A stretch of 64,000 nucleotides of DNA from Sphingomonadaceae bacterium (GCA_050261575.1 JBLNDL010000014.1:10054-74053), one strand, 5' to 3'. Counted from the stretch's first letter, positions 46,772 through 63,847 are shown. Numbers and translations are program-made. The notes: generated by a model from the sequence alone, not told the origin.

Positions 46772-46844
46772 TCTAAGCAGGTATCTCTAGTTCATGTCAA
46801 CCGTTCCGGCGGGATCTGTACTCAGTCCGGAGATACCTGCTCAG
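46772..46844 (+). mobile_element. MITE-like ~72-bp element with ~18-bp terminal inverted repeats, copy 1
   Basis: CTAAGCAGGTATCTCTAG...CCGGAGATACCTGCTCAG; right TIR supplies the TGA stop of the minus-strand MCP gene. Confidence 0.55.
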
Positions 46845-49309
46845 ACGGCGGGGACCGCACTGGCCCTGGCGCCCGCGAGTGGCTCGGGGCGAACCGGCGC
46901 GGTCCAGTCGTCTTGGCGCTGCCTGAACACCACGCCCTTCTCCTGGCTCATCCGGAAGTGGGCGATGGCGCCCTGAAGCTGTGCGGCCATGGCGGTGAGA
47001 TGCTGGGCCTGGGCCACCATCTCCTGCACCTGGGCGCTCATCTCCTCGGCGGCTGCGCTGACCTCCTCTGCGGAGGCGCTGGTTTCCTCGCTCACTGCCG
47101 CCACCCTCTCGACGGTCGACGTAACCTGCTGGCTGGAGACGACCATCTCCTGGGTAGCGGTGGCCGACGTGTCCGCCGCTGTGGAGACGCCGTTCATTAC
47201 CTGGACGACGTGCCGCGAGGCATCCTCCATCTGGCCGACGGCCGAGGCAATCTGGCTGACCTGGGTGGCGGCGGACTCCACGAGGGAGAGGATGTCCTTC
47301 AGAGCAGCGCCTGCCTCTTCGGCGAGGGCGGTGCCGGCTTCTACCTCCTTCATCCCCTCCTGGATCGCCATGACCGCCTCCTGGGTCTCCTTCTGAACCT
47401 GGCCGATCAGTTCCGCTATCTCTCTGGTTGAGCGGCTGGTGCGCTCCGCGAGCTTGCGCACTTCCTCCGCCACCACCGCGAAGCCTCGTCCGTGCTCTCC
47501 GGCGCGGGCTGCCTCGATGGCGGCATTGAGCGCGAGCAGGTTCGTCTGCTCGGCTATGTCGTCGATCGTCTCGACTATGGAGTTGATCTGCTCGGAGTAC
47601 TTGTCCAGGTCCTGGACTTCTTGGGTCGAGGCGATAGTGCGTTGCTTGATGACGGCTATCCCGTCTACCGTCTTCTCCACTGCCTTTGCCCCAGAGAGGG
47701 CGGCGCGTTGTGCTTGCTGGGTTGCCTCCGCCACCTCTCGCGAGGCCGCAGCGACCCTGGAGATGGAGTCGTTCAGTTGTGCCACTGAACCGGACGCCTT
47801 GCCGACGGCGTCCACCTGCCCCCGCGATGTGTCGGCGATCAGGTCTATTGCCCGGGACAACTGGTCGAGCGAGGATGCCGCCTCCTGGACGGAGCCGGAT
47901 TGCTCTTGGTTGCCCCGCGCCACTTCCTGAATGGTCTGGGCGATCTGGTGGGTGGCGGCGCCAGCCTGGGAAGAAGCGGAGGAGAGCGCCTCCCCTGCCT
48001 CGGCGACCCCGTTGGCCACGTCGGCCACCTGGCCTATGGCCTCGCGCAGGCCAGAGACCATCTGGGCGAAGGCGTTGCCCAGCAGGTCTCGCTCCGAGCA
48101 GGGATGTACCTCCACGGTCAAGTCGCCGCCTGCTATGGCCTCGGCCTGTCGGGATGCCCGCTTCAGGTACTCCCGGATGCCGCGGAAGGCGAGCCCTATC
48201 TGTCCGATCTCGTCCTGTCTGACGGTCTTCTTCCACTTCTTCTCGTCGGCGTGATAGGTGACGTCACCCTCGGCGGTGTGACGTGCCACGTCGGTGAGGG
48301 CTTCGAGGGGTTCGGCCACGCGCCGGGCGACGAACCAAGCCATGATCAGGACCAGCACCAGCAGCACGGCGGCCAGCGGCGCCATGCCGATCAACAGCCC
48401 ACGTGCGGGCGCCATGAACTCCGCCTCCAAGGCGGCGACTCCCACTGCCATCCCCTGGCCCTTGTAATCCCCGTCGGGCTTCACCGGGGCGAAGCCGATC
48501 AGCCTGCCAGATCCGTCCAACTGGTAGCTGCCTGCTCCGGTCTCGCCTGAGACCATCCGCTTGCCGATGGCCGCCAACTCAGGGACTTGATGCTCAGTCA
48601 GGCCGGTGGAGAGGGCGTGGGTGGAGTCTGTGCTCGCCACGATTGTGCCGGCGCGATCCACTACGAAGGCGTAGCTGTGTTCTCCTGCATTGATCTGCTG
48701 CAACTTGGCGGAGATCAGACCGTAGTCCAGGGCGCCGCCCAGAATGGCCTGCACCCGTCCCGCCTCGTCCTTCATCGGCACGGCAACGACGCTGATGAGC
48801 TGCTTGGTGACGGGCGAGGGCTTGGGCTCGCCGACGAATAGCTGACCCTCGATGGCGGGCTTGAAGAAGTCCCAGTTGGAGAAGTCCTGTCCGAGGAGTT
48901 TGCCGTCCAAGGCATCGAGGAACACCTTGCCGTCGATGCCGACCAGGAAGACGTTCTCGTACTCGCCGATCTGCAGAAGGTGCTCACCCTTCAGTTGGTC
49001 GATCGCGTTCTTGCGGGTGGCATCCTCCATGGAGCCCTTGGCCTGTTCGGCAACCGCCTTGTTCAGTAGGGCCCCGGTGCCAAGGACCATCATGGAGCGA
49101 ACCCTCTGGTTGAGGTGCTCAGAGATGAGAGCGGCTTGCTGCTCGGCCGTCCCGCTGAGCCTTTCGTACACCTGACTTCGGAGTGCGCTCTCGAAGCTTC
49201 TGTAGGACACGACCGTCGCCAGCGCCAGCGGCACGAGCGCTGTCACGAGACAGAGGGGGACCAGACTATTGCGCAAGCTTCGGGAGAAGATGCCGCGGAT
49301 CCTTCCCAT
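46841..49309 (-). CDS. methyl-accepting chemotaxis protein (Cache-type periplasmic sensor, HAMP, MCP signalling domain)
   Basis: TM, large periplasmic Cache-like domain, TM, HAMP, MCP core nearly identical to the other MCP. Confidence 0.85.
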
Positions 49310-49466
49310 CGTAGTGATCGAACCTCCTCACCTGATTGCCCCGCTCCGGGAATGGCCAATTTCGGCCCCGGCCTCGAGCAGTGATTGGTGGCCTGACACG
49401 AAGCTCCGGTTAGCCGCGTACGGTAGCACGGCCAATCCAGACAGCGGGGTTTCGCGCCGCGGTCAC

Positions 49467-49540
49467 GCTGAGCAGGTATCTCTGGTGCGTGTCAACTTCT
49501 CTGGCGGGGAACGTGTACTCGATCTGGAGATACCTGTTTA
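49467..49540 (+). mobile_element. MITE-like element, copy 2
   Basis: CTGAGCAGGTATCTCTGG...CTGGAGATACCTGTTTAG; ~160 nt upstream of the MCP start. Confidence 0.5.
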
Positions 49541-49635
49541 GTAAGATCGGCAGAACCGGAGATCTCTTTAGGGTTCGACGTGGGTAGGGCTACGATGGAG
49601 GTGGGGCTACGATCCACGGCCGGTGCAACCCGTAA

Positions 49636-49704
49636 CACCTATCTCTAGTTCATGTCACCTTCTCCGGCGGGAGACGCGTACTCCATCTGGAGATACCTGC
49701 TCAG
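49636..49704 (+). mobile_element. MITE-like element, copy 3 (left end degenerate)
   Basis: ...CACCTATCTCTAGTTCATGTCACC...CTGGAGATACCTGCTCAG; right TIR overlaps the TGA stop of ccmD. Confidence 0.5.
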
Positions 49705-49850
49705 TTGCCCTCTCGCTCGGCGAGGACTGCCTTCAGCGTCTCGATCTCCTCGCTCAGGGTCTTCTGTCGCGCGGCGATGCTGTAACTGTAGAGGAGCATC
49801 GCGAGCCAGATGATGGCGTAGGCCGCGAATAGAAACGTCAGATTGCCCAT
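49701..49850 (-). CDS. ccmD: heme exporter protein D (CcmD-like small membrane protein)
   Basis: 49 aa single-TM MGNLTFLFAAYAIIWLAMLLY..., directly downstream of ccmC; RBS GGAGG. Confidence 0.5.
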   Translation of the reverse strand: MGNLTFLFAAYAIIWLAMLLYSYSIAARQKTLSEEIETLKAVLAEREGN

Positions 49851-49933
49851 GTGGTTCCTCCGTGTACCCGATTCTGAGTCCCGAGTGTTGAGTGTTGGAT
49901 GCTGCGAGATGCCCTGTAAGGCCTGACTTCTCA

Positions 49934-50701
49934 CTACTCCTCGTAGAGCACATGGTCTCGTAGCCGGTACACCTCTTCCCTCTGCAGTTCGAGCCTCGTC
50001 CGCAGCCGGAGCAGGTGGACGAAGAGGAGGGTGAAGGCGGCCAGGCACACCACGAGGGTGGTCACCATGCGGGGATCGAGCTCCAGACTGGTGGAGGTGA
50101 TGACCACGGGGTGGATGGTACGCCACCATCTGATCGACATAAAGACGATCGGGACGTCGACGAAACCCACGATCCCTACGACGGCGGCGAGGGATGCGCG
50201 CTTGGAGGGGTTCTCCACCGCCGATCGGAGCATCAGGTAGGAGACGTAGATCAGCCACAGGATCAGGGTAGTGGTTAGCCTGGGGTCCCAGTCCCACCAG
50301 GTGCCCCACGTTGGCTTGGCCCAAATGGACCCAGTAAGGAGCGCCACCGTGGTGAAGAGGACGCCCACCTCCGCCCCGCTGGCGGCGAGGGCATCCCATC
50401 GGTGCCTCCTGGTGCGAAGCCACTGTATGCTGGCCGCGAACACCACAGCGAACGAGAGGAACCCGACCCAGGCCGCAGGCACGTGGAAGTAGAAGATGCG
50501 CTGCACGTCTCCCATCGTCGCCTCAGTTGGTGCGTAGAGAAAGGCGAAGTAGAGGGCCACCACCATCGCCGGAGCCACCGACCATCCGATGAGGTCGGGT
50601 TTGGAGCGACCGGCGATGCGGCTCAGTCCGGTCGCGTCTCTCTCGCGCGCGTCGCGCGTGGGTTTCGCCTCGGCGTCTACTGCCATCGGTTGCTCACTCA
50701 T
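49934..50701 (-). CDS. ccmC: heme exporter protein C
   Basis: CcmC family: WGTWWDWDPRL WWD motif, 6 TM helices. Confidence 0.8.
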   Translation of the reverse strand: MSEQPMAVDAEAKPTRDARERDATGLSRIAGRSKPDLIGWSVAPAMVVALYFAFLYAPTEATMGDVQRIFYFHVPAAWVGFLSFAVVFAASIQWLRTRRHRWDALAASGAEVGVLFTTVALLTGSIWAKPTWGTWWDWDPRLTTTLILWLIYVSYLMLRSAVENPSKRASLAAVVGIVGFVDVPIVFMSIRWWRTIHPVVITSTSLELDPRMVTTLVVCLAAFTLLFVHLLRLRTRLELQREEVYRLRDHVLYEE

Positions 50702-50707
50702 GGGCGG

Positions 50708-51382
50708 CTACTCCTGGAACACGTACTCGAATGTCAGGAAGGCTGCGGTAAGGAAGATAGCGTCGAAGCCGATCAGGACCGACAGCCAGGGACCGGAGCT
50801 AGCAGCAGGGGTGCTCGCCAGCGCCTCACCCGTCGCTTTGACGGCGGCGACGAGGACCGGCACCGCCACCGGTAGCAGCAGGATCGGTAGCATGATCTCC
50901 CGGGTCCGGGTGTGGACGGCAATGGCCGAGAAGAGGGTCCCCACGGCGGCGAAGCCAAGGGTTCCCAGCAGAACGATCAGCAGCAACCCGGGGCTGAAGA
51001 CCGGCAGATCGAAGAAGGCCCCGAACACCGGAAGGATGATGGCCTCCATGGTGGCCATGAAGAGCAGGTTGCCGACCATCTTGCCCAGGTAGATGGTGCC
51101 GCGATCGACGGGGCAGAGGAGGAGTCCCTCCATGCAACCCCGATCCTTCTCGGTGATGAAGGATCGGTTCAGTCCCAGCATGCCTGCGAAGACTATTGCT
51201 ACCCAGAGCACCCCGGGAGCGGCGGCCTCTTGGTTCTCCACCCTCAGGTCGAAGGCGAAGTTGAAGATCACTATGACCAGGAGGGCGAAGACGAACATGG
51301 AGCTGAGCATCTCGCGTGTGCGCAACTCCGAAACCACATCCTTGCGGACGATGGCCAGCACCTTGTCCAGGTAAGACATCAT
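50708..51382 (-). CDS. ccmB: heme exporter protein B
   Basis: 224 aa, 6 TM helices, CcmB-like; follows ccmA with 4-nt overlap. Confidence 0.7.
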   Translation of the reverse strand: MMSYLDKVLAIVRKDVVSELRTREMLSSMFVFALLVIVIFNFAFDLRVENQEAAAPGVLWVAIVFAGMLGLNRSFITEKDRGCMEGLLLCPVDRGTIYLGKMVGNLLFMATMEAIILPVFGAFFDLPVFSPGLLLIVLLGTLGFAAVGTLFSAIAVHTRTREIMLPILLLPVAVPVLVAAVKATGEALASTPAASSGPWLSVLIGFDAIFLTAAFLTFEYVFQE

Positions 51383-52143
51383 CGCCCGTTGCCCCCCCTG
51401 TGGCCTTGGGCGGTGTATCGGGAGTAGAGCTGGCGGACTGTGGTTGGATCCAGCTCCTCCGAGGGCGCCTGGAAGGCGATCCGCCCATCCACCAGGATGA
51501 CCACTCGGTCGCTGAGGGCCAGACCCAGGTCGAGGTGGTGGGTGATGACCAGCGCCGCCCTGCGGCGACCGGAGGCGGGCTCCCGCAGCAGGTCGACCAG
51601 CAGTTCGAGTGCGTCCTGGTCGAGCCCCGCCTCCGGCTCGTCCAGCATCAACACCTCCGGGTCGTGGAGAATCGCCCTCGCCATGGCGATCCGCTGCCGC
51701 ATCCCATGGGAGAAGGTGCCGACCCGATCGTCGAGTCGAGCCGTAAGCCCAACCCGCTCAACCGTCTGCGCGATCCTACGATCGAGGTTCTGGACATCGT
51801 ACATCCGGCCGTAGAAGCGGAGGTTCTCACGCGCCGTCAGGTCGTCGTACAGGTAGGAATGGTGGGAGACGACACCGATCCGCCGTCGCGCTTCGAGGGG
51901 GTCTTCTTCGGGATCGATGCCGTCTATCACCACGCGGCCGGTGGTGGGAGAGGCAACCGTGGCCAGGATGCGCATCAGAGTGGTCTTTCCGGCCCCATTG
52001 GGGCCGAAGATGGCCACCCGCTCTCCCCTTGCCAGGGAAAGGCCGATCCCCTTGAGTACCAGCCGGTGGCCGAATCGCTTCGTGACTCCCTTGGCCTCCA
52101 GGGCCAGGGCGGTCGACTCGGCCACCGTCGATCCTCCGATCAC
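51379..52143 (-). CDS. ccmA: heme exporter ATP-binding protein CcmA
   Basis: Walker A GPNGAGKTTL, signature FSHGMRQR, Walker B LMLDEP. Confidence 0.8.
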   Translation of the reverse strand: MIGGSTVAESTALALEAKGVTKRFGHRLVLKGIGLSLARGERVAIFGPNGAGKTTLMRILATVASPTTGRVVIDGIDPEEDPLEARRRIGVVSHHSYLYDDLTARENLRFYGRMYDVQNLDRRIAQTVERVGLTARLDDRVGTFSHGMRQRIAMARAILHDPEVLMLDEPEAGLDQDALELLVDLLREPASGRRRAALVITHHLDLGLALSDRVVILVDGRIAFQAPSEELDPTTVRQLYSRYTAQGHRGGNGR

Positions 52144-53591
52144 TGGTCGCCCCTGGCGGCCGCCAGCGCCTTCTGCCGGGCGACCACCTCGACCAGGCGC
52201 TTCTTCTTCTCCGCCCGCAGGCGTCCGTACTCCTCGGCGCCGATCTTCCCGCTCTCGAATTCGTCGTCCAGGCGCGCGATTGCGCCTATCAGTTCTCGCT
52301 TCTCGGCATCGAGGATCTCCTCCTCGGCCTCGATCTCGGCCTCGGTGTGCGGCGCGGCCGACGCTTCCTCAAGGCCGGATTCGGCCTCCGGCGATTCCCT
52401 GTTGCGTGCGGGGGCTGCAGGCCGAGCGGCGCCGGTGCGCCGCTTGCCGCGTCGCCTCACCAGGATGACCGCGACCACGACGACCGCCACGACGATGGCT
52501 GCCACCCCGGCTATCAGCGGCGTCTGAGACTGCTGCGCCGTGGGTGCCTGTGCCTTGGATAGCTGGTCCAGGTCGAACTTCAGCTCGGTATCGGCGGACA
52601 CGTTGTCACCGCTGAGGAGCACGAACTTCTCGCCCTGGATGTCGGGGTTGCTCCTGTTGGGGAGGTTGGACACCGAGATGCCCACCCCGTTGTCCGGCAT
52701 GAGGACGTTGACCTTGGCGGTTGCCTGGGTGACCTTCGAGACGAAGCTTGCGGAGCCGTTCGTGGCGGTGATCCGGTACCGGAAGATCCGTTGAGTGTCG
52801 CCAGGATAGAGCGGCCAGGTGTCTACCAGGCTGCCCTCGCTCTCGAACACTCGGGTTCCGACCATGCCGCCGCCGTATTCCACGTCTTGAGCGCCCTGTG
52901 GAAGGGCGAAGCGAAGGGTCTCCTTCACTCCCTCGTGGATTTCCCTGGAGCCCACGTAGGTCTTGTCGCCGCTGTTGCTGATGATGGCGATCTCGGATAC
53001 GTTGACTCCCTCGGGATCCGGCTCCAGGAGGTAGTGGCGGGCGGCCCATTTGATTGCCTGGTCGGAGGTGGTGGCGTCGAACACTTGCACCTCGGCCGTC
53101 TGCTCGGAGGAGCCCGACGGGAACGTGAGCGGCTCGGCCGCGTAGTCCACTCCCTGATACTGGACGTGCAGCAAGTAGGTGAAGTCCTGCCCGGTCTCCA
53201 GTCCTTCGAAGGCGAACTTCCCGTCCTGTCCGGCAGTGGCCGTCCGCTTGTCGGCCTGATCCTGACCCTTGAAGACGAGGAGGTTGACCTCGACCCCGGC
53301 CACGCTGCCTCCGTCCTTGGTCAGATTCACCACGCTGCCCTTGATGGTGCCCATGGCTCCCGTCGCCGCCGTTGCCGCCGGGGTGGCGGCGGGAGTAGCG
53401 GCAGGCGTGGCGGCCTGCTGGCTCTCCGCGGCCATGGCCGTGGCAGCCAGGCCCAGGAAGAAGACCGCGACGAGCGCGAGCGCAGTCAGTGTGGTAGCCC
53501 TCACCCTAGCCCGCTCCCAGAGGGAGAGGGGATTCGCCGACTGCCTCTGGGAGCGAGTCGGGGTGAGAGCCCCAGTCGATCCGTTCTCCAT
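52140..53591 (-). CDS. secreted, membrane-anchored protein with carboxypeptidase-regulatory-like beta-sandwich and C-terminal coiled-coil, embedded in the ccm operon
   Basis: Signal peptide, ATPAATPAATPA linker, GSVVNLTKDGGSVAGVEVNL (CarbopepD_reg-like), C-terminal TM plus charged helix; RBS GAGGGGG; overlaps ccmA start. Confidence 0.45.
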   Translation of the reverse strand: MENGSTGALTPTRSQRQSANPLSLWERARVRATTLTALALVAVFFLGLAATAMAAESQQAATPAATPAATPAATAATGAMGTIKGSVVNLTKDGGSVAGVEVNLLVFKGQDQADKRTATAGQDGKFAFEGLETGQDFTYLLHVQYQGVDYAAEPLTFPSGSSEQTAEVQVFDATTSDQAIKWAARHYLLEPDPEGVNVSEIAIISNSGDKTYVGSREIHEGVKETLRFALPQGAQDVEYGGGMVGTRVFESEGSLVDTWPLYPGDTQRIFRYRITATNGSASFVSKVTQATAKVNVLMPDNGVGISVSNLPNRSNPDIQGEKFVLLSGDNVSADTELKFDLDQLSKAQAPTAQQSQTPLIAGVAAIVVAVVVVAVILVRRRGKRRTGAARPAAPARNRESPEAESGLEEASAAPHTEAEIEAEEEILDAEKRELIGAIARLDDEFESGKIGAEEYGRLRAEKKKRLVEVVARQKALAAARGDQ

Positions 53592-53649
53592 GTATAGTCC
53601 CCCTCGACTCGGTATTCGACTCAAAGCTTTCCAAGACCTAACACATATT

Positions 53650-54237
53650 CTACCGCTTCGACCCGCGTCGAAGTGATGCCCCGCACCTGCTGCAGAAGGC
53701 CGCTTCGGGGTCCAGAACCCGTTGCCCGCATTCGGGGCAGAGGACCGCACTCGAGCCCTTGGAGTCCCCGCCTCTGCGGACGCTGGACCCCTTGGATCGC
53801 TTTCGGAAGGATTGGATCTCCTCCTCCAGGTCCAACTCCGAGTCCTCGACGTGGCCGCGTCCGGTATCCCCGGCCGTCGAGGGCAAGTCGGCCAGGAACT
53901 CCTCCTCGGCCTCCGGAACGCTCCTGCCCCGGAGTCTGCCGGATCGTGCGTCGTCGATTCGTTTGAGGATGGCCACCGCCTTCTTCTTGTATCGGTCCTG
54001 GAGTTCCTGGAAATCCTCCTGGGATAGGTTGCCCATCGCCAGGTCGAACTCCAACTCCTTCATGGCGGCGTACACCGTGTCTCGCTGGAAGAGCAGTCGC
54101 TGGAGCACGGGCTCGCTCGGCTCCCCACCGAGGAACTCCTCGGGTCTGGTTCGCCCGAAGAGAAGGGGCCATGCTACGAAGACCGCTGCGCCGACGGTGA
54201 TGGCCAGCATGGCCACCATGGTCCACTGGAACGACAT
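53650..54237 (-). CDS. membrane-anchored protein with C-terminal zinc-ribbon (CPECG...CSRCG)
   Basis: N-terminal TM, acidic helical region, C-terminal C-P-x-C-G/C-x-R-C-G pair; between ccmH-like and the unknown secreted gene. Confidence 0.4.
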   Translation of the reverse strand: MSFQWTMVAMLAITVGAAVFVAWPLLFGRTRPEEFLGGEPSEPVLQRLLFQRDTVYAAMKELEFDLAMGNLSQEDFQELQDRYKKKAVAILKRIDDARSGRLRGRSVPEAEEEFLADLPSTAGDTGRGHVEDSELDLEEEIQSFRKRSKGSSVRRGGDSKGSSAVLCPECGQRVLDPEAAFCSRCGASLRRGSKR

Positions 54238-54257
54238 TCTCGCCTCAACCTCCCGTG

Positions 54258-54815
54258 CTATTCGAACTGCTGCAGATCTCTCGAGAGTTGGGACTCGTAC
54301 CGTCGCAACTCTTCTTCACTCAGATCCCTGGCCACCTCGGCGTTCAGGTAGGCATCGTGCCACCTGCGCTCCCTCAACCAGGCGGTCAGCAGGTACCCCA
54401 GGAGGGCAGCCCCGCCGAAAATGGTGGCGAAGGGGGTGATCCAGGCCGCCAGGCTGAAGCCCTGCTTGGAGGGCGCCGGCAGGATGCGCTCGCCGTACTG
54501 GCGAACCAAGGTGTCCACGATCCTCTGACGTGGCCAGCCTTCGGCCGTCTTGGCTCGGATGAACGATCTCATCCACGCGGCCTCGGGTGTGTTGGACGTG
54601 CGCAGCGGCCGCGAACTGGCCGCCGAAGGGCACCTCAACTCGTCGATCAGTTCATCCGCCGGGTCGGTTGCCCCCAGCGGTGCAGTCAGCCAGAGTACCA
54701 CGACCCCGGCCGACAGCAACGCGACGAGGATAAGCCGCAGGGCAGGCGAATGGCTCTCTCCACGGTGAGGGAGAGCCCGCCTCGTCGTCAACATCGCATT
54801 ACGGATCCACCGCAT
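54258..54815 (-). CDS. ccmH: CcmH/NrfF-like cytochrome c biogenesis protein (LRCP motif, single Cys)
   Basis: Signal/TM, LIDELRCPSAAS where the canonical family has LRCxxC; C-terminal TM; TPR-less short form. Confidence 0.5.
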   Translation of the reverse strand: MRWIRNAMLTTRRALPHRGESHSPALRLILVALLSAGVVVLWLTAPLGATDPADELIDELRCPSAASSRPLRTSNTPEAAWMRSFIRAKTAEGWPRQRIVDTLVRQYGERILPAPSKQGFSLAAWITPFATIFGGAALLGYLLTAWLRERRWHDAYLNAEVARDLSEEELRRYESQLSRDLQQFE

Positions 54816-54899: not shown

Positions 54900-56903
54900 C
54901 TACGCATCGACCGGCTGAAGCACTTCTGCCGTTGGACGCTCGGCGGCCAGCCACGCCGCCTCTCGACGCCTCTCCTTCGCGTCCGGCCAGATGGCGATGA
55001 AGCCGCCCAGCATCAGCAGGTAGCCTCCGGCCCATATCCACGCCACCAGGGGGTTGATCACGAGTCTCAGTGAGGCGCTCTGGCCGGTCCAGGAGTTGAG
55101 TATGAGATAGAGGTCCTCCGCCGCAGTGCTTCGGATGGCCACCTCTGTGTTGGGCTGATCCCAGCCCTGGTAGAACTCCTTGGTGGGGGTCATCGTCCCC
55201 AGCAACTGGTCGCCGGAGTACATGGTGATGTTCGCCGCCACGATCTCCTTCCGACCCTCCCTAGAATCGGAGAGACCCTGGTAGACCAGGCGGTAGCCGC
55301 CGATGGTGGCCTCCTGGCCCGGGGCAAGGGTGACGTCTTTCTCCGTCTTGAAGCCGCTGGAGCCCACTACGCCGATGGCCAGCACGACGATGCCGAGATG
55401 AACCAGGTAGCCGCCGTAGCGAGGCTTGTTTCCCCAGACCAGCGGGCCCAGCGCGAGCAGGGGGTTGCGGTTCAGTATGCGAGCTTGGGCGCGCGCCCCG
55501 CGCCAGAACTCCAGGGCTATGGTGCCCAGCACGAAGCCGCACGAGGCGAACGCCACCAGTGCGTAGAGCTGGCGGACGTTGAGGAAGAGGGCGATCGCCG
55601 TGGCGATCAGCCCAGCCAGGACCGGAGCGCGGAAGTTCCTCAGGAGGTTGTCCATCGAGGCTCGCCGCCAGCCGATGATGGGGCAGATCCCCATGAGAAC
55701 GACGATGGCGAGCAGAATGGGACCGACCACCTGGTTGAAGAACGGCGCGTTGACTGTGACCTTGACACCGCGGATCGCCTCGGAGATCAGCGGGAACATC
55801 GTGCCCCAGAGGACGGCGAAGGCGCCGCCCACCAGGAGAAGGTTGTTCAGCAGGAAGCTAGACTCCCTGGAGACCAGGGAGTCCAGTTCGTTCTCCCCCT
55901 GCAGAAGCGGAAGCCGGTCCCAGATGAGCGCGACGGAGACGGTGATGGTCACGAGCATCATCGCCACGAACATGGGCCCGACGTTGGTTTCCCCGAAGGT
56001 GTGCACTGAGGAGAGGATATCGCTTCTCGTGAGGAAGGTGCCGAAGACGGTGAGGAGGAAGGTGGCGATGATCAGCGCGAGGTTCCACACCTTCAGCATG
56101 CCGCGGCGGCGCTGGATCATGATGGAGTGGAGGAAAGCGGTGCCGGTGAGCCACGGCATGAAGGAGGAGTTCTCCACCGGGTCCCAGCCCCAGTAGCCGC
56201 CCCATCCCAGCTCCACGTAGGCCCACTGGGCGCCCAGCAGGTTGCCGATGCCCAGGAAGACCCACGCGAAGAGCGTCCATCGCCTGGTGATCTGGATCCA
56301 CTCGTTGCCCAGTTGTCCAGTGATGAGCGCAGCCAGGGCGAAGGCGAAGGGCACCGTGAACGCGACGTAGCCCAGGTAGAGGGCGGGCGGGTGGAACAGC
56401 ATGCCCACGTTTTGGAGCAACGGGTTCAGGCCCTGGCCGTCGGGAGGCGGAGCCGGCAGACGGATGAAGGGGTCGGAGAAGAACACCAGCAGTGATAGGA
56501 AGAAGGTCGAGACGAAGCCCATCACGGAGGTGACCCAGGGCATGAGGGTCTTGTGCCGCCCCCGGTTCTGGAGTGTGACGATCAGCAGCATCATCACGAC
56601 GCCCCAGGCCCACATGAGCAACGAGCCTTCTTGGCTGGCGTAGGCCCCGGAGAGGCTGTAGACGAGGTCGATGTCGCGGCTGTTGTAGCGCGCGACGGTC
56701 TGCAGGGAGAAGTCGTGGGTCGCGAAGGCGTACAGCAGCACCCCCCAGGCAAGGGAGACCAGCGCGGCCGCGGCGTAAACCGCATTGCGTGCGCTGGCCA
56801 GCAGATCCGCCTCGCGCCGCGTGATGCCGATTGCCGAAATCACCGTCAGGTAGGAGGTGATGACGAAGGCTACAACCAGTGAGATGCGTCCGATTTCTGC
56901 CAT
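54900..56903 (-). CDS. ccmF: cytochrome c-type biogenesis protein CcmF (heme lyase)
   Basis: 667 aa, ~15 TM helices, WGGYWGWDPVEN WWD motif. Confidence 0.85.
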   Translation of the reverse strand: MAEIGRISLVVAFVITSYLTVISAIGITRREADLLASARNAVYAAAALVSLAWGVLLYAFATHDFSLQTVARYNSRDIDLVYSLSGAYASQEGSLLMWAWGVVMMLLIVTLQNRGRHKTLMPWVTSVMGFVSTFFLSLLVFFSDPFIRLPAPPPDGQGLNPLLQNVGMLFHPPALYLGYVAFTVPFAFALAALITGQLGNEWIQITRRWTLFAWVFLGIGNLLGAQWAYVELGWGGYWGWDPVENSSFMPWLTGTAFLHSIMIQRRRGMLKVWNLALIIATFLLTVFGTFLTRSDILSSVHTFGETNVGPMFVAMMLVTITVSVALIWDRLPLLQGENELDSLVSRESSFLLNNLLLVGGAFAVLWGTMFPLISEAIRGVKVTVNAPFFNQVVGPILLAIVVLMGICPIIGWRRASMDNLLRNFRAPVLAGLIATAIALFLNVRQLYALVAFASCGFVLGTIALEFWRGARAQARILNRNPLLALGPLVWGNKPRYGGYLVHLGIVVLAIGVVGSSGFKTEKDVTLAPGQEATIGGYRLVYQGLSDSREGRKEIVAANITMYSGDQLLGTMTPTKEFYQGWDQPNTEVAIRSTAAEDLYLILNSWTGQSASLRLVINPLVAWIWAGGYLLMLGGFIAIWPDAKERRREAAWLAAERPTAEVLQPVDA

Positions 56904-57051
56904 GTGGTCCGGCTATCCTCGCTTTCGGGCCCGCGCCGTTCTCCGCGCGGGTGTGGATCTGGGCCTCGGGACGCTGGCTTGCAGGGCGCGGGAGAGCGGA
57001 CGCTCGTTCCCCGCGGAAGGGGGACGAGGCGCCCGTGCCCGGCGGCTACCG

Positions 57052-57525
57052 CTACTGGGTAGCCGGCGTGTACTTGGAGGCGCACTTGGCCAGGAGCGTG
57101 GAGGCCTGGAACTGGCCATCGACCCCCAGCTTGCCCTCGACGATCACGTCGGTCCCCTCCTGGAAGCTGTCGGGGACGACCCCCGTGTAGGTGATCGGCA
57201 GGGTTTCCTTGCCGTCGGTGAGACTGAAGGACACGGTGCTGGTCCCCTTCTCCCACTGCACGGAGCCCTCGACCACCCGTCCTCCCAGCTTGGTCTGCTG
57301 GCCGATGGCCTTCTCCCCCATCGCCTTGAGCTCGCCGGTGGTGACGAAGTACTCGGACCCGCTCTGGGTGGCCGCGTAGATCATGTAGGCTATGGCGGCC
57401 ACGATCACGAGCCCCGCCACCACGAACCGCAACTTGGTGCGGGGGCGACGGCGGCTCGAACCCCTGCTGGACGCTCTTGCCGTCGCGACTCGCGAGCCGG
57501 TCCTGACGGTGTCCTCTGTCAGCAT
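57052..57525 (-). CDS. ccmE: heme chaperone CcmE, Cys-type variant (LAKCASKY)
   Basis: N-terminal TM, OB-fold core, C-terminal LAKCASKY where the canonical protein has LAKHDENY (Cys replaces the heme-binding His). Confidence 0.75.
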   Translation of the reverse strand: MLTEDTVRTGSRVATARASSRGSSRRRPRTKLRFVVAGLVIVAAIAYMIYAATQSGSEYFVTTGELKAMGEKAIGQQTKLGGRVVEGSVQWEKGTSTVSFSLTDGKETLPITYTGVVPDSFQEGTDVIVEGKLGVDGQFQASTLLAKCASKYTPATQ

Positions 57526-57703
57526 CGACCTCTCTCCTCTCTTGGGTCAGACCGCTCGGCCTCTTACCCGATGCGCGCCGCCCCTGCGGCTGGCCGGCCC
57601 GACTCAGGAAGGCTCGGACGACGCTGCACCCGCTCGCGTCGCGCCTCTGGCACGCGGGCGGAGTGGACAGGGCCGGCTCCTCGTCGTCGGCGCGGGACAA
57701 CCG

Positions 57704-58108
57704 CTACCACGGAAGCCAGTAACGGTGGGTCGAAGACTCCACGATCAGTCTGCCCCGGTAGATGCCCATCTCCGAGGTAAACAGATACTCTCCCCGTGGG
57801 GGCTGCGGCAATTCGATGCAGGTGGTCCTATACGCCGGCAACCGTCTGTCGACCCCGAGTTCTGAGAAGATCACCCGGCTGGAGCACTCCTCGTTCTCCA
57901 GACGGGTAAACCTCAGCCTCAAGGGGATCCCCTCGCGCGCAATAGCCACGTCAGGGGTGTATCCCCCCAGCACCACTATCTCCATCTCCTGCACCCCATC
58001 CGGCCCCAGCCGCGCCTCCCGGCGGCGCCGGTCGTTGCGCCGAACGAGAAGGAGGGCCACAACCGCTGGAAGCCCGAAGAGGGTGGCCAGTACAGCGAAT
58101 TGGTCCAT
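57704..58108 (-). CDS. membrane-anchored cupredoxin-like domain protein (tentative)
   Basis: N-terminal TM then ~100-aa beta-rich domain (EIVVLGGYTPDVAIAREGIPLRLRF) resembling a cupredoxin_1-type fold; low confidence. Confidence 0.3.
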   Translation of the reverse strand: MDQFAVLATLFGLPAVVALLLVRRNDRRRREARLGPDGVQEMEIVVLGGYTPDVAIAREGIPLRLRFTRLENEECSSRVIFSELGVDRRLPAYRTTCIELPQPPRGEYLFTSEMGIYRGRLIVESSTHRYWLPW

Positions 58109-58251
58109 GACGACGCCTGCCTAGCGGTCCGCCGGCAGCGGACGGCAGCCAGCCGCCAACTGGGCGTTCTGTAGATGATACCGCGCGGGCCGAAGCTGGG
58201 GGCGGGAGAAATATTAGACTAGGATAAGAATTGCGATGGGCCATCGGCCAA

Positions 58252-58322
58252 ACCTGGTGTCTCCAGTTCTTGTCAACTTCCCCGGCGGGAAACGTGTACT
58301 CTATGCAGAGATACCCGCTTAG
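58252..58322 (+). mobile_element. MITE-like element, copy 4
   Basis: ACCTGGTGTCTCCAGTTCTTGTCAACTTCCCCGGCGGGAAACGTGTACTC...GAGATACCCGCTTAG; right TIR supplies the TAA stop of the histidine kinase gene. Confidence 0.5.
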
Positions 58323-59701
58323 ACTGCGGGCAGGCGGACGGTGAAAGTGGTTCCCTGTCCCGGGTCGCTGCTAGCCTCGATCTCGCCCCCGTGCTCCTCT
58401 GCGATCCAACGGGCGATGGCCAGTCCCAACCCGGTGCCCCCTTCGTCACGGGCCCTGGCCTTGTCCGCCCGATAGAAGCGCTGGAAGATGTGTGGCAGGT
58501 CCTCCGGCGCGATCCCCATGCCGGTATCCTTCACCCGGAGCACGGCCATCCCGTCCTCGCGCTGCAGGGACAGCGTGACGGTCCCGCCGCGAGGCGTGTA
58601 CTTGAAGGCGTTCTCCAGGAGTATCAGCAGCAACTGCTTGAGCCAGGTGGCGCTCGCGCGGACCGCCACTGGCTGGACCGAGTCCATCATCAGCGCCACG
58701 CCGTGCTCGTTGCCCTGCCGCGTGCGATAGGTGTCGGCCAGCAGTTCGTCCAGGTCGACTCTCTCCATGTCGATCTTGTGGCCTGCGTCGGCCTTGGCCA
58801 GCAGCAGCAGGTCGGAGGTTAGCCGGCTCATTCGCTCGACCTCCGCTGCCACGTCGTCCAGGGCCTCCGCCCGATCCTCTTTCGGTGCGTCCAGGGCTCG
58901 CTGCAGGAACTCGATGTTGCTTCGGATGGAGGTGAGAGGGGAGCGCAGCTCGTGGGAGGCATCGGATACGAACCGCCGCTGGGCGTCGTAGGCCGCGTCG
59001 AGGCTGGAGAGCATCTCGTTGAAGGTGATCGCCAGCCGCCCGACCTCGTCTCGCGACCTGCCCACCTTTAGCCTCCGCCCAAAGCCGCGGGACAGGGCGA
59101 TTGCTCGGGCGGTTTGGGTGATCTCCTCGATCGGTTTCAGCCCGTTGCGGGCGATCAGCCAGCCGACCGCCACCGCCACCAGTAGGCCGAAGGCGTTGCC
59201 GGCCAGCAACAGTGCCCTCACGCGGGCCAGGGCGGCATCCACATCCCGAAGGGAGCTGAGCACTAGGACGAACCCCCTGGGCTCTCCCGTGCCGCGGATG
59301 GGCGCGAGTAGGGCTCGGTATCTTTGCCCCTGCATTGCGGCGGTGTAGCTGGCCGGTGTTCCCCACCAAGCTGTGGCGAAGGCATCGTCGGGAATGGGGA
59401 AGGTCTCGCCAGCCAGGTTGGATGAGCTGGCGACGGGGCGGCCGTTGGGGTCCAGTATCTCCACCGACACGCCAGGGGATGCGAAGGGCTCGAGTGCTCC
59501 CTCCTGGACCGTGATGGGAGCGGAGGGGTCTGGGCTGCTCCTGAGGGATTGGCGCACCTGTTCGCTGAATGGGGCGAGCCAGCGGTCCGCCTGCAGCAGC
59601 AGTTCGCGCTCCAGGGTGAGGTAGACCAGGGGCGCGAAGATCAGGAACATGAGGGCCAGGAGGGCCGTGTACCAGAGAGCCAGACGGAGGCGGATGGACA
59701 C
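58319..59701 (-). CDS. sensor histidine kinase (HAMP-HisKA-HATPase_c, OmpR-partner type)
   Basis: Two TM helices, HAMP, H-box SHELRSPL, N/G1/G2 boxes. Confidence 0.85.
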   Translation of the reverse strand: MSIRLRLALWYTALLALMFLIFAPLVYLTLERELLLQADRWLAPFSEQVRQSLRSSPDPSAPITVQEGALEPFASPGVSVEILDPNGRPVASSSNLAGETFPIPDDAFATAWWGTPASYTAAMQGQRYRALLAPIRGTGEPRGFVLVLSSLRDVDAALARVRALLLAGNAFGLLVAVAVGWLIARNGLKPIEEITQTARAIALSRGFGRRLKVGRSRDEVGRLAITFNEMLSSLDAAYDAQRRFVSDASHELRSPLTSIRSNIEFLQRALDAPKEDRAEALDDVAAEVERMSRLTSDLLLLAKADAGHKIDMERVDLDELLADTYRTRQGNEHGVALMMDSVQPVAVRASATWLKQLLLILLENAFKYTPRGGTVTLSLQREDGMAVLRVKDTGMGIAPEDLPHIFQRFYRADKARARDEGGTGLGLAIARWIAEEHGGEIEASSDPGQGTTFTVRLPAV

Positions 59702-59705
59702 GCGG

Positions 59706-60401
59706 TCACTCCCTCAGAACGTATCCCGCTCCCCGAACGGTGTGGATCAGCCGCGGCTCGCCCTCCGCCTCCAGCTTGGTCCGGAGGTAGCGGATGTAGA
59801 CCTCGAGGACGTTGGACTCGCTCTCGAAGTCGTAACCCCACACCTTCTCGAGGATGACGTGCCGCGGTACCACCTCGCCCGGGCGACCCAAGAAGAACTC
59901 CAGCAGCCTGTACTCGGTGGTGGTCAGATCGATCCTCCGCTCGCCACGGCGCGCGGTCCTGGAGCGGGCGTCGAGGTGGAGGTCCTGGTAGATCAGCTCG
60001 GTGCGAGGCTGGGGCTCCCTGCGGCGCAGCAGCGCACGTACGCGCGCGAGCAACTCCTCGAAGGCGAACGGCTTGACCAGATAGTCGTCGGCTCCGGCGT
60101 CCAGGCCGGCGACCCGGCTGGCCACCTCGTCCTTGGCGGTAAGCATCAGTATGGGAACGTCGCTGGTCCGGCGAAAGAGCCGACACACCTCCATCCCGTC
60201 GATGCCGGGCATCATGATGTCCAGCACCACTAGGTCTGGCGCGGGGTCTCTGGCCCTCGTGAGGGCCTCGGCGCCGCTGTTGGCGACGTCCACCGCGTAC
60301 CCCTCGTAGGTGAGGCCGCGGCGGAGCGCGCCGGTGATCTTCCGGTCGTCGTCAACGACGAGTATGCGCGGGCTGGTCTGGGGGTGGCCATTCACTTCCA
60401 T
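59706..60401 (-). CDS. OmpR-family response regulator
   Basis: ILVVDDD...D receiver and winged-helix trans_reg_C ([24 protein letters not shown]). Confidence 0.85.
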
Positions 60402-60487
60402 AGTGACTGATTATACCACCGGGCGGATGCCTCGAGGCGCTGGGACAGTAAGGCGCAGCCTCACCGCGGTCTCGTGGACGGCCACCT

Positions 60488-61570
60488 CTACTCGACACCG
60501 CTGGAGAAGAAGGCACCTCCATCCTGGTTGAACCCTGCGGCACGACTCGGGGACGACGCCATGGGGCTTCCGCAGGAGCCAGCCACGATGAGGGGTGCAT
60601 CGAGGAGTACCGACTGGGGGCTGTCGGGTCCCCTACCCTCCAGCCGCGATACCAAGAGCTCGGCGGCCACGCGCCCGAGATCCAATGAGGGGACTGAGAT
60701 CCTGGTCAACGGTGGATCGACCAAGTCGTTCCACGGGTCGCTTCCCATGCCCACGAGCGCAACGTCGTCCGGCACGCGTATGCCCTTCTCCCTCAGGAAA
60801 CGGACGACCTCGTACGACAACTGGGCATGGGCAACAACCAGGGCTGTCGGTCGGGGCGACCCAGATAGCAGGCGAGTCATCCCCAGCCGTACCTCGTGGG
60901 GCTCGGGCTGGATCTCACATATGAGTCTGTCCTGCAATGGGATCCCATGTGACAGGAGCGCCTGGGAGTACCCAGTCCGGCGGGCGGTGAACATGGCGCG
61001 CGGGCTCGCCCTTCCGACGAATCCGATGCGCCGGTGGCCGAGCGACAGCAGATGCTCCGTAGCCCTCTTCACGGCCAGCTCATCGTCGATGTCGACGCAA
61101 TCGACAGTCGCCGAAGCGGGATGGCAGTGAACCAATACGACCGGGAATTCGGTGAAACCTGCCATCTTGTTGACGAACATCTCGGAGCACCCGATCGCCA
61201 GCAGCCCGTCTACACGCAGATCCGTCAGGGTGCGGATGGCGTTCAACTCAAACGAAGACTGCAGGTGCGTGCAGGAGAGGATGGGCGAGTACCCATGCGC
61301 AACCAGCACCTCCTCGGCACCCGTCACCAAGACACCGACGGACGGGACACGAACGTGGGAAACAAGACACCCAACAGTGTTCGTTCGCTTCGTCTTCAAC
61401 CCGCGAGCAAGTCTGTTGGGGCGGTATCCGATCTGCTCCGCCACGGCCAGCACTCGCTCTCGAGTCTCCGGTTTTACGTGGCGAGTACCGTGTATGGCGT
61501 GGGAGACGGTACAGACCGAGAGTCCGGTGAGTTCGGCTACATCCTTAATGGTGGGCACTGGCTGCTTCAT
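60488..61570 (-). CDS. LacI-family transcriptional regulator
   Basis: N-terminal HTH TIKDVAELTGLSVCTVSHAI..., periplasmic-binding-fold C-domain. Confidence 0.8.
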   Translation of the reverse strand: MKQPVPTIKDVAELTGLSVCTVSHAIHGTRHVKPETRERVLAVAEQIGYRPNRLARGLKTKRTNTVGCLVSHVRVPSVGVLVTGAEEVLVAHGYSPILSCTHLQSSFELNAIRTLTDLRVDGLLAIGCSEMFVNKMAGFTEFPVVLVHCHPASATVDCVDIDDELAVKRATEHLLSLGHRRIGFVGRASPRAMFTARRTGYSQALLSHGIPLQDRLICEIQPEPHEVRLGMTRLLSGSPRPTALVVAHAQLSYEVVRFLREKGIRVPDDVALVGMGSDPWNDLVDPPLTRISVPSLDLGRVAAELLVSRLEGRGPDSPQSVLLDAPLIVAGSCGSPMASSPSRAAGFNQDGGAFFSSGVE

Positions 61571-61732
61571 CCAAAGGTCGAGTTCTCCATGGAGGGGCGC
61601 TGAGACCTAAGGCAGCACTGTCTCGGCGTCTATGATAGCAGATGATGAGCAGGCCAACGACCAAGGTATGGCCCACGTGGCGGGGTGGGAGGTGGGACAG
61701 GGCACACCGACGGAAGTGGGATCCCGCTACCG

Positions 61733-62725
61733 CTAGATCTTGAAGCTCTCCCGGGTGTTAGGCGCGAACAGTTCCTCGGGGTTCAGTCGGCGCGGTGTCA
61801 GCCCCTGGTCCCAGAGGTAATCCATCAGGGTCTGGAGCGTTCGCTGGTTGGGGCTGAGCCCATCCGGCCATGGATCTTCGCCCATGAGGTTGACCATCTC
61901 CTCCACGTCGGCGACCATCCACGGAAGCAGGTAGCGGAGTGACGTGGGATTGGCGATCGACTGGTAGCAGAGCCGTTTCGCCTGGATGAATGCCTTGAGA
62001 AGGCTGGGGGCCACCCACGGGTACTGCTGGTAGACACCCTTCCTGATGACGATCGTGTGCATGATCGGGAAGATTCCCGTTTGGCCGAAGTACTCCTTCT
62101 CCACCTTCCGACAGTCTCGGAACAACCGTCTTATCTCACCGCTTCTCGTGCGAAAGATGGAGGGGGTACGGGCTGCCAGCAGCGCAGCAATCTCACCGTC
62201 GAGGAGCATATCGTTCAGGGATCTACCGGGAGGAGCCTGCTCGATGTGAACCCCAGGAGGCGACTGAAGCGGGATCTTCTCTTTTCGATCGGGCTGTTCC
62301 TGTCCGCCGGTCACCCACTCGATTTGTTCGGGACCGACGCCGTATTGGTCTTTCAGGATGCCCCTTACCCATACCGCCGCGGTGATCTGGTACTCTGGTA
62401 CACCAACCCGTCTCCCAATGAGGTCCGCCGGCTGTTCGATGCCCGAATCCTGTCGAACGTAGAGCGACGAATGCCGGAACATCCGAGAGGGGAACACTGG
62501 GATAGCCACGAAGGGCGAGGCGTTTCGAGCGCACTCCATGGCATACATGGCAAGCGACATCTCGGAGACGTCGAACTCCTGGTGACGGATCATTCGCCAG
62601 AAGGTCTCTTCCGGCTCGAGGGGCAGGTAGTTCAAGTCGATGCCCTCCGGTGTCACCCGCCCGTCCAGCAGTGCCCGAGTGCGGTCGTAGTCACCACAGG
62701 CAAGGGTGATCCTGACTTTTGCCAT
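61733..62725 (-). CDS. SsuA/THI5-fold protein, 4,5-dihydroxyphthalate decarboxylase-like family
   Basis: MAKVRITLACGDYDRTRALLDGRVTPEGIDL N-terminus typical of this family; RBS GAGG 7 nt before ATG 62725. Confidence 0.45.
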   Translation of the reverse strand: MAKVRITLACGDYDRTRALLDGRVTPEGIDLNYLPLEPEETFWRMIRHQEFDVSEMSLAMYAMECARNASPFVAIPVFPSRMFRHSSLYVRQDSGIEQPADLIGRRVGVPEYQITAAVWVRGILKDQYGVGPEQIEWVTGGQEQPDRKEKIPLQSPPGVHIEQAPPGRSLNDMLLDGEIAALLAARTPSIFRTRSGEIRRLFRDCRKVEKEYFGQTGIFPIMHTIVIRKGVYQQYPWVAPSLLKAFIQAKRLCYQSIANPTSLRYLLPWMVADVEEMVNLMGEDPWPDGLSPNQRTLQTLMDYLWDQGLTPRRLNPEELFAPNTRESFKI

Positions 62726-62848
62726 GGTTTGCCTCATTCCTTGGTGATCTCAGGTGCCGATCGTCGCTGGGGTCTCTGGTTCCGTGGGGCGATGGCCGCT
62801 TGCCAGCGAGGACGAACGTATTCCTCGTCCTCACTGGCCCCGCAGCCT

Positions 62849-63550
62849 CTACCTGGAAGCGGGAAGAGACCGGAGATAATCCATCACCTCCGCCACCTTC
62901 ATGACGTCCGCATACTTCGCGTTCATGTCGAACAGGTTGATCTTGTGGGAAACCTCACCCCGGTCGAAGGTGCACTCCTCGATGACGCCAACCTTGAAAT
63001 TGTAGGAGAAGGCATCGATGACCGTCGCGCGCACACATCCGCTTGTCGTAGTGCCGCAGACCAAGACCGTGTCAACGTTGTGATATATGAGGTAGCTCAG
63101 CAATGGTGTCGCGAAGAAGAGAGAAGGTTTCTCTTTTGGGATGATGATGTCGTCCGGCCCGGGAGCGATTTCGGCCACTATCTGGTTGCCGTCGCCCTCT
63201 CCGGGCTCGCCAGTGCGGCGGTTCTTGGCCGCCCACTGACCGGCGAAGATCCGTTGCGCTCCACTCCTGGGTTTCCCTGTAGAGTAGAAGATCGGGACCT
63301 TCCGCTCCCTCGCGAGGGGTAGGACCTGCTGCAGCCCTCGCACCGCATCCCACCCTGCCTCGCCACAGGACATGTGGAACCGCTTGATCGATTCCAGGAT
63401 CGGTTCGGGCTTGTCCCCCACGAAGTTGTAGTTCACGTCGATTATGATAATCGCCGGCTTACGGCCGAGTCCACCACGTTGACCATAGCCAGCCGCCTCG
63501 TATACCAGCTTGTCCTTCTCAGTGAGGACGTCGTCCCAGACTCTTCCCAT
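62849..63550 (-). CDS. isochorismatase-family cysteine hydrolase
   Basis: AIIIIDVNYNF (Asp), K, and VLVCGTTTSGCVRAT (catalytic Cys) triad pattern. Confidence 0.75.
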   Translation of the reverse strand: MGRVWDDVLTEKDKLVYEAAGYGQRGGLGRKPAIIIIDVNYNFVGDKPEPILESIKRFHMSCGEAGWDAVRGLQQVLPLARERKVPIFYSTGKPRSGAQRIFAGQWAAKNRRTGEPGEGDGNQIVAEIAPGPDDIIIPKEKPSLFFATPLLSYLIYHNVDTVLVCGTTTSGCVRATVIDAFSYNFKVGVIEECTFDRGEVSHKINLFDMNAKYADVMKVAEVMDYLRSLPASR

Positions 63551-63773
63551 CGCTCATCCTCTCGACTGCGAAATCCTCGAGCAAGATCATCTTGTTGGGT
63601 TGGTGGCGACCCGTCCGCTGGAGAGGTCGAGATCGGAATCGGCGATCTCTGAGGTGGGCTACCCTCTCCGGCGACACGAGCCGCCGCCACGCAAGAACTC
63701 GGCTACCGACAGCGCTTAACGCAGCCCGTGCAGGGGCGGACCTATGTGGCCGCCCCTACGGGTACTGTCAGGA

Positions 63774-63843
63774 TCTAAGCAGGTCTCTCCAGATAGTACA
63801 CGCTTCTCGACAGAGAAGTAGACGTGAACTAGAAGCCTGCTCA
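63774..63843 (-). mobile_element. MITE-like element, copy 5 (inverted orientation)
   Basis: CTAAGCAGGTCTCTCCAG...CTAGAAGCCTGCTCAG; reverse complement aligns with copies 1-4; abuts the stop of the following gene. Confidence 0.5.
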
Positions 63844-63847
63844 GGCT

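Follow-up and report, generated by a model that had tools for sequence, protein, structure and literature searches.

A short inverted-repeat element between the genes of the window

The DNA analysed here is a stretch of 64,000 nucleotides from Sphingomonadaceae bacterium (GCA_050261575.1, JBLNDL010000014.1:10054-74053), which at its full length we call the window, and our subject is a repeat of ~72 bp that recurs in its intergenic spacers, mostly at the ends of genes. The Pfam-supported neighbours of the copies in the window encode a methyl-accepting chemotaxis protein (MCP), the ccm operon, a histidine kinase with its response regulator, a cupredoxin, an isochorismatase and the C-terminus of TctC. 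The 49-aa product listed as ccmD has no Pfam match, the name being based on the length of the product, a hydrophobic helix in it and the gene's place behind ccmC. Eight of the ten intact copies that we found carry the stop codon of the adjoining gene in their own terminus, and we think it likely that the family consists of remnants of a miniature inverted-repeat transposable element (MITE), non-coding and bounded by 18-bp terminal inverted repeats, with TA/CTAG-type integration at stop codons.

A first-pass annotation of the window had reported five copies of such a MITE-like element. All five are present (c1 to c5 in Table 1) and, with the copy boundaries set at the terminal pentamer CTNAG, their refined ends lie within 0-5 nt of the coordinates reported there. 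A repeat finder grouped four of the five (families D3 and D5), and in a MAFFT alignment c5 fits only as the reverse complement. In the window the 13-mer GGAGATACCTGCT occurs with at most one mismatch only at the elements, and at up to three mismatches it has 34 matches, compared with 17 +/- 4 in shuffled sequence. An nhmmer profile of the five copies recovers them with E values of 4e-24 to 6e-20 and also picks up two decayed copies in the window, c6 and c7. Both are intergenic, and the true start of coaBC, the gene after c7, lies at ~26987.

The search for copies elsewhere, which the first-pass annotation had suggested, gave five more intact ones on two other contigs, L089 and L103. These contigs were reached via TctC paralogs and a homoserine dehydrogenase, and we assign them to the same organism on the grounds that they come from the same samples and encode proteins with the same name of a metagenome-assembled genome (MAG) at NCBI. 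The total is thus 10 intact and 2 decayed copies on three contigs, with ~128 kb surveyed, or ~1 per 11 kb, while a third region of the same organism (L093 and L094, ~17 kb) has no copy. Two further TctC paralogs, P0116 and P0136, were set aside, as they belong to a related MAG, GCA_040960625.1, which has no copies. The copies cluster locally: c2 and c3 lie in the same orientation in one spacer, 163 bp from start to start, and together fill more than a third of the 391-bp gap between ccmD and the MCP gene, and L103 carries four copies within 5.8 kb.

Table 1. Copies of the element, the stop codons and genes that they adjoin in the window, and nearby hairpins. Positions are those of the window unless a contig is named.
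Feature	Location	Strand	Description
c1	46773-46844	+	72 bp, both arms intact; right CTCAG holds the MCP stop (TGA, 46843..46841)
MCP gene	46841..49309	-	822 aa
c2	49468-49541	+	74 bp, near-perfect 18-bp inverted repeat; in mid-spacer between the CcmD-like gene and the start of the MCP gene, not on a stop
c3	49631-49704	+	left arm decayed; right CTCAG holds the stop of the CcmD-like gene (minus strand; TGA, 49703..49701)
c4	58249-58322	+	left arm decayed; right CTTAG holds the histidine kinase stop (TAA, 58321..58319)
Histidine kinase gene	58319..59701	-	
c5	63775-63844	- (inverted)	70 bp; begins 1-2 nt past the tctC stop (TAG, 63848..63846)
c6	~6505-6573	-	decayed, nhmmer E ~6e-6; intergenic, between an NAD-synthase-like gene and a HAD hydrolase gene
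c7	~26858-26932	-	decayed, core recognisable, arms lost; between coaX (end 26756) and coaBC
c8	L089 8720-8796		begins in the TAA stop of a TatA/B-family gene, GAC TAA GCAGG
c9	L103		stop of CoA-transferase; junction in mRNA sense ATC TAG GCAGG
c10	L103		stop of FAA hydrolase; junction in mRNA sense TAC TGA GCTGG
c11	L103		stop of a 125-aa protein; junction in mRNA sense GAC TGA GCAGG
c12	L103		stop of homoserine dehydrogenase; junction in mRNA sense GAC TGA GCAGG
GC-rich hairpin	46732..46765		8 nt beyond c1, between the convergent POR-gamma and MCP genes; probably a native terminator
Terminator-like hairpin	58234..58246	-	T-rich tail; just downstream of c4 in mRNA sense
GC-rich hairpin	63732..63757		17 nt beyond c5 in mRNA sense; candidate native tctC terminator

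The copies are 70-77 bp long with arms of 18 bp. The arms of c1 and c2 are nearly perfect inverted repeats, decay has affected the left arms of c3 and c4, and in c3, c4, c8 and c10 much of one arm is gone. Over the 10 intact copies 84.7% of the cells of the two arms pair, a value that falls to 22-46% when the partner is slid by 1-3 columns. The majority consensus of the 10-copy alignment reads C-TA-AGCAGGTATCTCTAG ... CTGGAGATACCTGCT-TA-G, with the ends CTAAG...CTTAG (also written C-TA-AGCAGG...CCTGCT-TA-G), and every reading frame of it, in both directions, is closed within the element, so that it has no coding capacity. The earlier description of a MITE-like, non-coding, multi-copy element with inverted ends is borne out. 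The element has ~50% GC, compared with 59-69% in the window, and substitutions away from the consensus run more often from AT to GC (26) than from GC to AT (10); from this excess we take the TA-type ends to be the likely ancestral ones and the TG/CA variants to be later changes.

Most intact copies carry the stop codon of the adjoining gene

The first-pass annotation had placed the stops of the MCP gene, the ccmD-like gene and the histidine kinase gene within the terminal CTCAG or CTTAG of a copy and had noted that a fourth copy abuts the TctC stop. The codons are located as described (Table 1), and with the copies on other contigs the pattern proves more regular than had been noted: c1, c3, c4 and c8 to c12, eight of the ten intact copies, hold their neighbour's stop in the terminal C-TNA-G, and counting c5, with the tctC stop just outside it, nine of the ten directly follow a gene end. 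All eight element-borne stops are in a single frame, at terminus positions 2-4. If insertion were uniform over non-coding positions, at least 8 of the 12 copies would fall at a stop with P = 3e-15, and the chance that all eight use one given frame of three is 1.5e-4. About 7% of the surveyed genes (8 of ~110) now end in a stop supplied by a mobile element, and the repeat is of use in annotation as a marker of gene ends.

The two ends of the element differ at the third base of the terminus. On the gene-proximal side it is G, giving TGA, in six of nine copies (c1, c3, c5, c10, c11 and c12) and A in c4, c8 and c9, whereas on the gene-distal side it is A in 9 of 9 (CTAAG), an asymmetry with a Fisher P of 0.009. 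The proximal TGA is not a native stop that was kept, since relatives read TAA, TAG and TAA at the c1, c11 and c12 sites. Selection at the level of RNA was likewise rejected as the cause, since G.U pairs (15) and A.C mismatches (13), counted in the mRNA sense of the upstream gene, are balanced. Two possible sources of the asymmetry are left: a later replacement of TAA by TGA that was favoured at working stops, or an integration step that depends on orientation.

TAG is the commonest stop codon in this organism, ending 28 of the 57 genes of the window and 27 of 53 genes at the other loci (L089, L093 and L103), and TAA is the rarest. In genomes of 65% GC, TGA is normally the dominant stop, so that the preference for TAG is unusual. 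The upstream paralog of the MCP gene ends in GGC TAA GGG, a C-TAA-G stop without an element; the two MCP genes (40065-42428 and 46841-49309) lie 6.8 kb apart and are 70-79% identical in nucleotides across the halves that encode the C-terminal signalling part (repeat families D1, D2 and D4).

The insertion sites are empty in related genomes

Six insertion sites could be compared with related genomes that share the gene order, in seven comparisons, and the site was empty in all seven. L086 is empty at the c1, c3 and c4 sites, L087 at c3, L097 at c5, and L105 at c11 and c12. L086 and L097 come from JGI sample 3300069939, L087 from GCA_040960625.1 and L105 from GCA_054604675.1. The proteins of L086 and L097 are 58% (MCP) and 78% (TctC) identical to those of the window, and L087 has 77-82% nucleotide identity to it; L105 is the closest relative, with 92% identity in the homoserine dehydrogenase protein and 83-90% at the nucleotide level. 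For the ccmD-MCP spacer the comparison with L087 is too diverged for alignment to place an empty site. No copy was found in ~73 kb of L086, L087, L097, L098 and L101, and none in L105 to L107.

The genes at the filled sites end where their orthologs end. The MCP and kinase proteins align to the final residue with those of L086 (AVPAV* and AVPAV*, RLPAV* and RLPLA*), and the L105 orthologs of the genes at c11 and c12 have the same lengths, 125 and 428 aa. At its empty sites L105 reads GGG GAG TAG GGCGGCTCGACGCCC (c11) and GAG GAC TAA TGGAGGAACCATCATG (c12). The ends of CcmD vary somewhat more, being 1 residue shorter in L086 and 3 residues longer in L087.

The repeat is therefore a dispersed, lineage-specific insertion and not a conserved sequence. 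The first-pass annotation had named two findings that would speak against mobility, namely the same sequence serving as a conserved 3' end of orthologous genes and a lack of additional copies in the genome, and we find neither. It had also proposed that the inverted repeat holds all three stop codons in different frames, under selection for insertion-tolerant ends. In the consensus only two of the three reading frames reach a stop inside the 18-bp arm, the third running to the far end of the element, and such selection is unneeded, since one frame is used in 8 of 8 cases and the proteins keep their native ends. A single frame together with native protein ends points to insertion into the stop codon itself and not to tolerance of random insertion. 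Because the copies are common to all the near-identical strain variants and absent in L105, the insertions are older than the divergence of the strains and younger than the split from L105.

Insertion into C-TAG as the favoured reading

The family has most of the defining features of a MITE, a class of elements of less than ~300 bp, in that it is short, non-coding and multi-copy, has inverted ends and is missing from orthologous sites. In the mechanism that we propose, the element would have been moved in trans by a transposase presumed to be encoded elsewhere and would have entered a short palindrome with TA in it; C|TA|G with duplication of the TA, as in IS630/Tc1-mariner-like elements, fits best. 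As the element begins with A, insertion in C-TA-G would give C-TA-A and hence an in-frame TAA at the position of the old stop, leaving the protein unchanged, and a stop rebuilt in place and in frame would explain the unchanged protein ends. The copies would then have decayed neutrally, their 47% GC drifting toward the composition of the host, and most of the gene-proximal TAA would have turned into TGA. For the host the insertions probably have no effect beyond an extra hairpin in 3' untranslated or intercistronic RNA.

The choice of target would go far toward accounting for the position of the copies. The host has ~65% GC and CTAG is rare in it, with 41 sites in 64 kb and only 7 of these outside genes and elements. 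Over all surveyed loci the tolerable sites comprise 21 C-TAG stops and 26 non-coding CTAG sites; because CTAG is rare and TAG the commonest stop, ~45% of the sites open to a harmless insertion are stops. The 8 of 12 copies found at stops are compatible with this expectation of 45% (P = 0.11), and a combination of target choice and selection probably explains why copies are associated with stop codons. Other target-site duplications fit less well: a 3-bp TNA duplication of the IS5/Harbinger type was rejected, as the two trinucleotides are never direct repeats, and a 4-bp CTAA/CTAG duplication fits c9 only.

Several observations weigh against the reading as a TA-duplicating MITE. Although c9 has CTAG at both junctions, no other intact copy has the same dinucleotide at both, and since C-TA-A...T-TA-G forms a palindrome of its own, the putative TA duplication is inseparable from the inverted repeat. 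The empty sites in relatives read G-TAG-G, C-TAA-T, G-TAA-T, G-TAG-T, C-TGA-C and C-TGA-G, none of them CTAG, and the TGA-rich proximal ends are covered by the model only on the assumption of a later change from TAA to TGA. In the window, the part of the genome open to a terminal-repeat search, such a search matches only the elements themselves, and no transposase or full-length element with these ends was found. Strain variants that are 99.6-99.95% identical all have the same copies, with no presence/absence polymorphism, and so give no sign of recent mobility. Strict scans also did not recover the family elsewhere: there was no match in GTDB representative genomes (pattern of core plus right arm), in viral contigs (inverted-end pattern) or in plasmids (consensus), and the strict pattern had one match in JGI metagenomes, L005, with a partial profile at E = 0.08, which we take as chance.

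A stronger version of insertion at stops is that integration is aimed at stop codons as such, and not just at CTAG, with the stop rebuilt from the element's own terminus. The gene-proximal end would then become TGA in two thirds of the cases and the distal end would stay TAA. We hold this to be unlikely. If true, it would amount to a 'safe-haven' strategy that uses the one trinucleotide every gene needs, and it would imply an extra step, in the form of joining that depends on orientation or of selection acting on the rebuilt stop. A preference for stops beyond what a preference for CTAG accounts for would be a new kind of target choice, and the stop-codon targeting and the TGA/TAA asymmetry of the ends are the most notable parts of the system. 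The family is a clean natural case of a selfish element with a harmless landing site in a compact, GC-rich genome.

Alternative readings and the question of the hairpin

The position of the copies could also reflect a selected RNA element of the 3' untranslated region, acting as a terminator, as a barrier to 3'-exonucleases that stabilises the mRNA, or as a regulator of translation termination. Such roles have precedents, and nine of the ten intact copies do stand directly at gene ends, with long hairpins formed by intact copies such as c1 and c2 (z-scores of -3.9 to -6.8). In E. coli, hairpins of repetitive extragenic palindromic (REP) sequences stabilise upstream mRNA, and those within ~15 nt of a stop codon are reported by Liang and Deutscher to lower translation. 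MITE hairpins at gene 3' ends have been discussed as RNase III substrates in Coxiella (PMC5896051). The pairing itself, however, shows no sign of having been kept. In the 18-pair stem over 10 copies, 84.7% of the cells pair compared with 84.5% in shuffles, and 3 double-sided changes are seen where 3.0 are expected, with the same outcome in a 6-copy alignment. The balance of G.U and A.C given above, in mRNA sense, means that nothing protects pairing in the transcript. In keeping with the loss of much of one arm in c3, c4, c8 and c10, c3 and c4 fold no better than shuffled sequence. The element is moreover absent at every orthologous site compared, and Rfam gave 0 matches at the gathering score over the whole window and no relevant match at E <= 10 over 46600-49800.

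The specific proposal of the first-pass annotation, that the elements likely act as terminators, is not supported either. The stems have ~50% GC with no T-run after them, a terminator scan flags none of the elements, and c1, c4 and c5 are each followed by a separate GC-rich hairpin (Table 1); the one beside c1 is kept in L087, where it directly follows the stop of a non-orthologous MCP. Copies c9 to c12 lie between same-strand genes, where termination would cut off the genes downstream; at c12, for instance, only 13 bp separate the homoserine dehydrogenase gene of the relative L105 from the next one (PALP domain, probably thrC). From the missing compensatory changes and T-runs, the separate downstream hairpins and the intra-operon copies, we conclude that the stem is neither a selected RNA helix nor a terminator but the inherited inverted repeat of a non-autonomous transposon, decaying at random, and we regard a selected RNA element as improbable. 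A hairpin that starts in the stop codon offers a natural test of how structure affects termination and downstream expression. An outward promoter was considered and rejected, for only 3 of 10 copies have TTGACA on the strand complementary to the core, and no -10 element was found; the hexamer, a perfect -35, is at 46796-46803, 49491-49498 and 58273-58280 (c1, c2 and c4) and faces the downstream minus-strand genes.

Two further alternatives accept mobility and differ from a MITE in the route. A short extragenic palindrome of 70-77 bp that forms a single long hairpin, recurs at a density as high as ~1 per 11 kb and has no clear target-site duplication might be a REPIN, that is, two inverted REP units moved by a RAYT (an IS200-like Y1) and not by a DDE transposase. 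A GTAG or CGTC tag at one end of a palindromic unit of 20-40 bp defines most REP superfamilies (PMC3733652), and neither consensus arm has such a tag. Each 18-bp arm pairs with the other arm and not with itself, and the element is bounded by true terminal inverted repeats that have TA-type flanks, and so we consider a REPIN origin very improbable, the least probable of the readings. Site- and strand-specific integration that recognises the stop pentamer CTNAG, by a recombinase acting on a circular intermediate or by a single-strand route like that of IS200/IS605, would account directly for the asymmetric ends (proximal TGA, TAA or TAG against a distal A at the third position) and for the want of a convincing direct duplication at any copy. 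It is also in line with the occupancy of 8 of 21 C-TAG-type stops against 4 of 26 non-coding CTAG sites (P = 0.10). Yet the symmetric 18-bp inverted repeats do not resemble the ends of IS200/IS605, the element can be turned to the gene with either of its ends (c8 and c10 differ in this from the other six), and relatives have TAG or TAA at empty sites where the filled c1, c11 and c12 read TGA, which sits badly with a gene-proximal trinucleotide derived from the target and a distal one derived from the element. We give little credence to this mode of integration, and the split origin of the two trinucleotides seems to us just as hard to credit.

Two other kinds of element do not fit. Integron attC sites would lie behind cassette genes in an array and would show at their ends the cores RYYYAAC and GTTRRRY, which are absent here, the ends being CTNAGCAGG...CCTGCTNAG, and the flanking genes are syntenic housekeeping ones (the ccm operon, a two-component system, homoserine dehydrogenase). 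An IS200/IS605-derived palindromic element (PATE) would have unlike ends with subterminal hairpins, no terminal inverted repeats and a fixed orientation beside a target of 4-5 nt, whereas our copies have symmetric inverted repeats and can turn either end to the gene.

Comparison with known elements

A MITE of this kind has close counterparts. TA-flanked bacterial MITEs derived from IS630/Tc1-mariner-type elements have been reviewed (PMC2229807), examples being RUP of Streptococcus pneumoniae and Correia/NEMIS of Neisseria. Like them, the present element is shorter than 200 bp and non-coding, has terminal inverted repeats with TA at the outer ends, can form an end-to-end RNA hairpin, is mostly intergenic, exists in many copies, is AT-richer than its host and is thought to be mobilised in trans. 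It differs in that no sequence similarity to a known family was found, the TA duplication is only putative, and the host is uncultured, of 65% GC and Chloroflexota-like. The exact placement of 80% of the intact copies on a stop is a feature that PMC2229807 does not mention. Overlap with gene ends is known from Coxiella burnetii, where QMITE1 and QMITE2 extend 1-50 bp into functional genes at the 3' end with hardly any change in protein size, and where all functional genes affected by QMITEs were struck at the 3' end (PMC5896051). The Coxiella overlaps vary and change C-terminal residues, while here the overlap is a constant 4-5 nt, the frame is always the same one and the proteins keep their ends.

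Insertion in 5'-CTAG-3' with duplication of TA is the habit of IS630 and IS870, and IS870 has been reported to need the CTAG target for completing its own stop codon. The palindromic CTAG target containing TAG, and the TA duplication that we propose, are thus shared with these elements; they are full-length with a transposase, however, whereas ours is a miniature derivative and the stop that is rebuilt is that of the host gene. REP, REPIN and bacterial interspersed mosaic elements (BIMEs) of Proteobacteria resemble it as abundant extragenic palindromes at gene 3' ends that can affect mRNA stability and, near a stop, translation, and they differ by the tag and by arms that are themselves palindromic. 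Exact-wording text searches of the literature returned no family in which most copies supply stops and no MITEs in Chloroflexota. MITEs overlapping gene 3' ends are already known from Coxiella. The repeat described here is a new family of a known kind, essentially an ordinary miniature transposon.

Source organism and further observations

The MCP of the window has an identical counterpart in an NCBI MAG labelled 'Sphingomonadaceae bacterium', and the window is matched at 99.9-100% identity by Logan contigs from several sequencing runs. The nearest CcmF among GTDB representatives is only 58% identical; the top matches are mostly Chloroflexota MAGs, the single best being labelled Ktedonobacter racemifer, and Chloroflexota is also the name given to close homologs of other proteins. 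From these matches the source appears to be an uncultured Chloroflexota-like lineage, and the Sphingomonadaceae label of the MAG is probably wrong. The genomes of the distant relatives found by the CcmF scan (<=58% identical) have no element.

An assembly break lies close to one of the copies. The Logan contig L004 (SRR36106230) stops 7 nt outside c4, at window position 58329, and other contigs of the c4 region stop at 56175-56189, inside ccmF. The repeat may contribute to such breaks.

A second, unrelated family of GC-rich palindromes occupies intergenic spacers of the window, at 2298-2356, 3986-4064 and 6395-6453, with a related pair at 16483-16548 and 17308-17373. Its core, GAGGCGAGCGAGCGCAGCCTCGCG, has 3 matches at up to three mismatches, compared with 0 in shuffles. 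A similar sequence appears to follow c12 on L103 (~16160-16200), so that the two repeat families may stack in one spacer.

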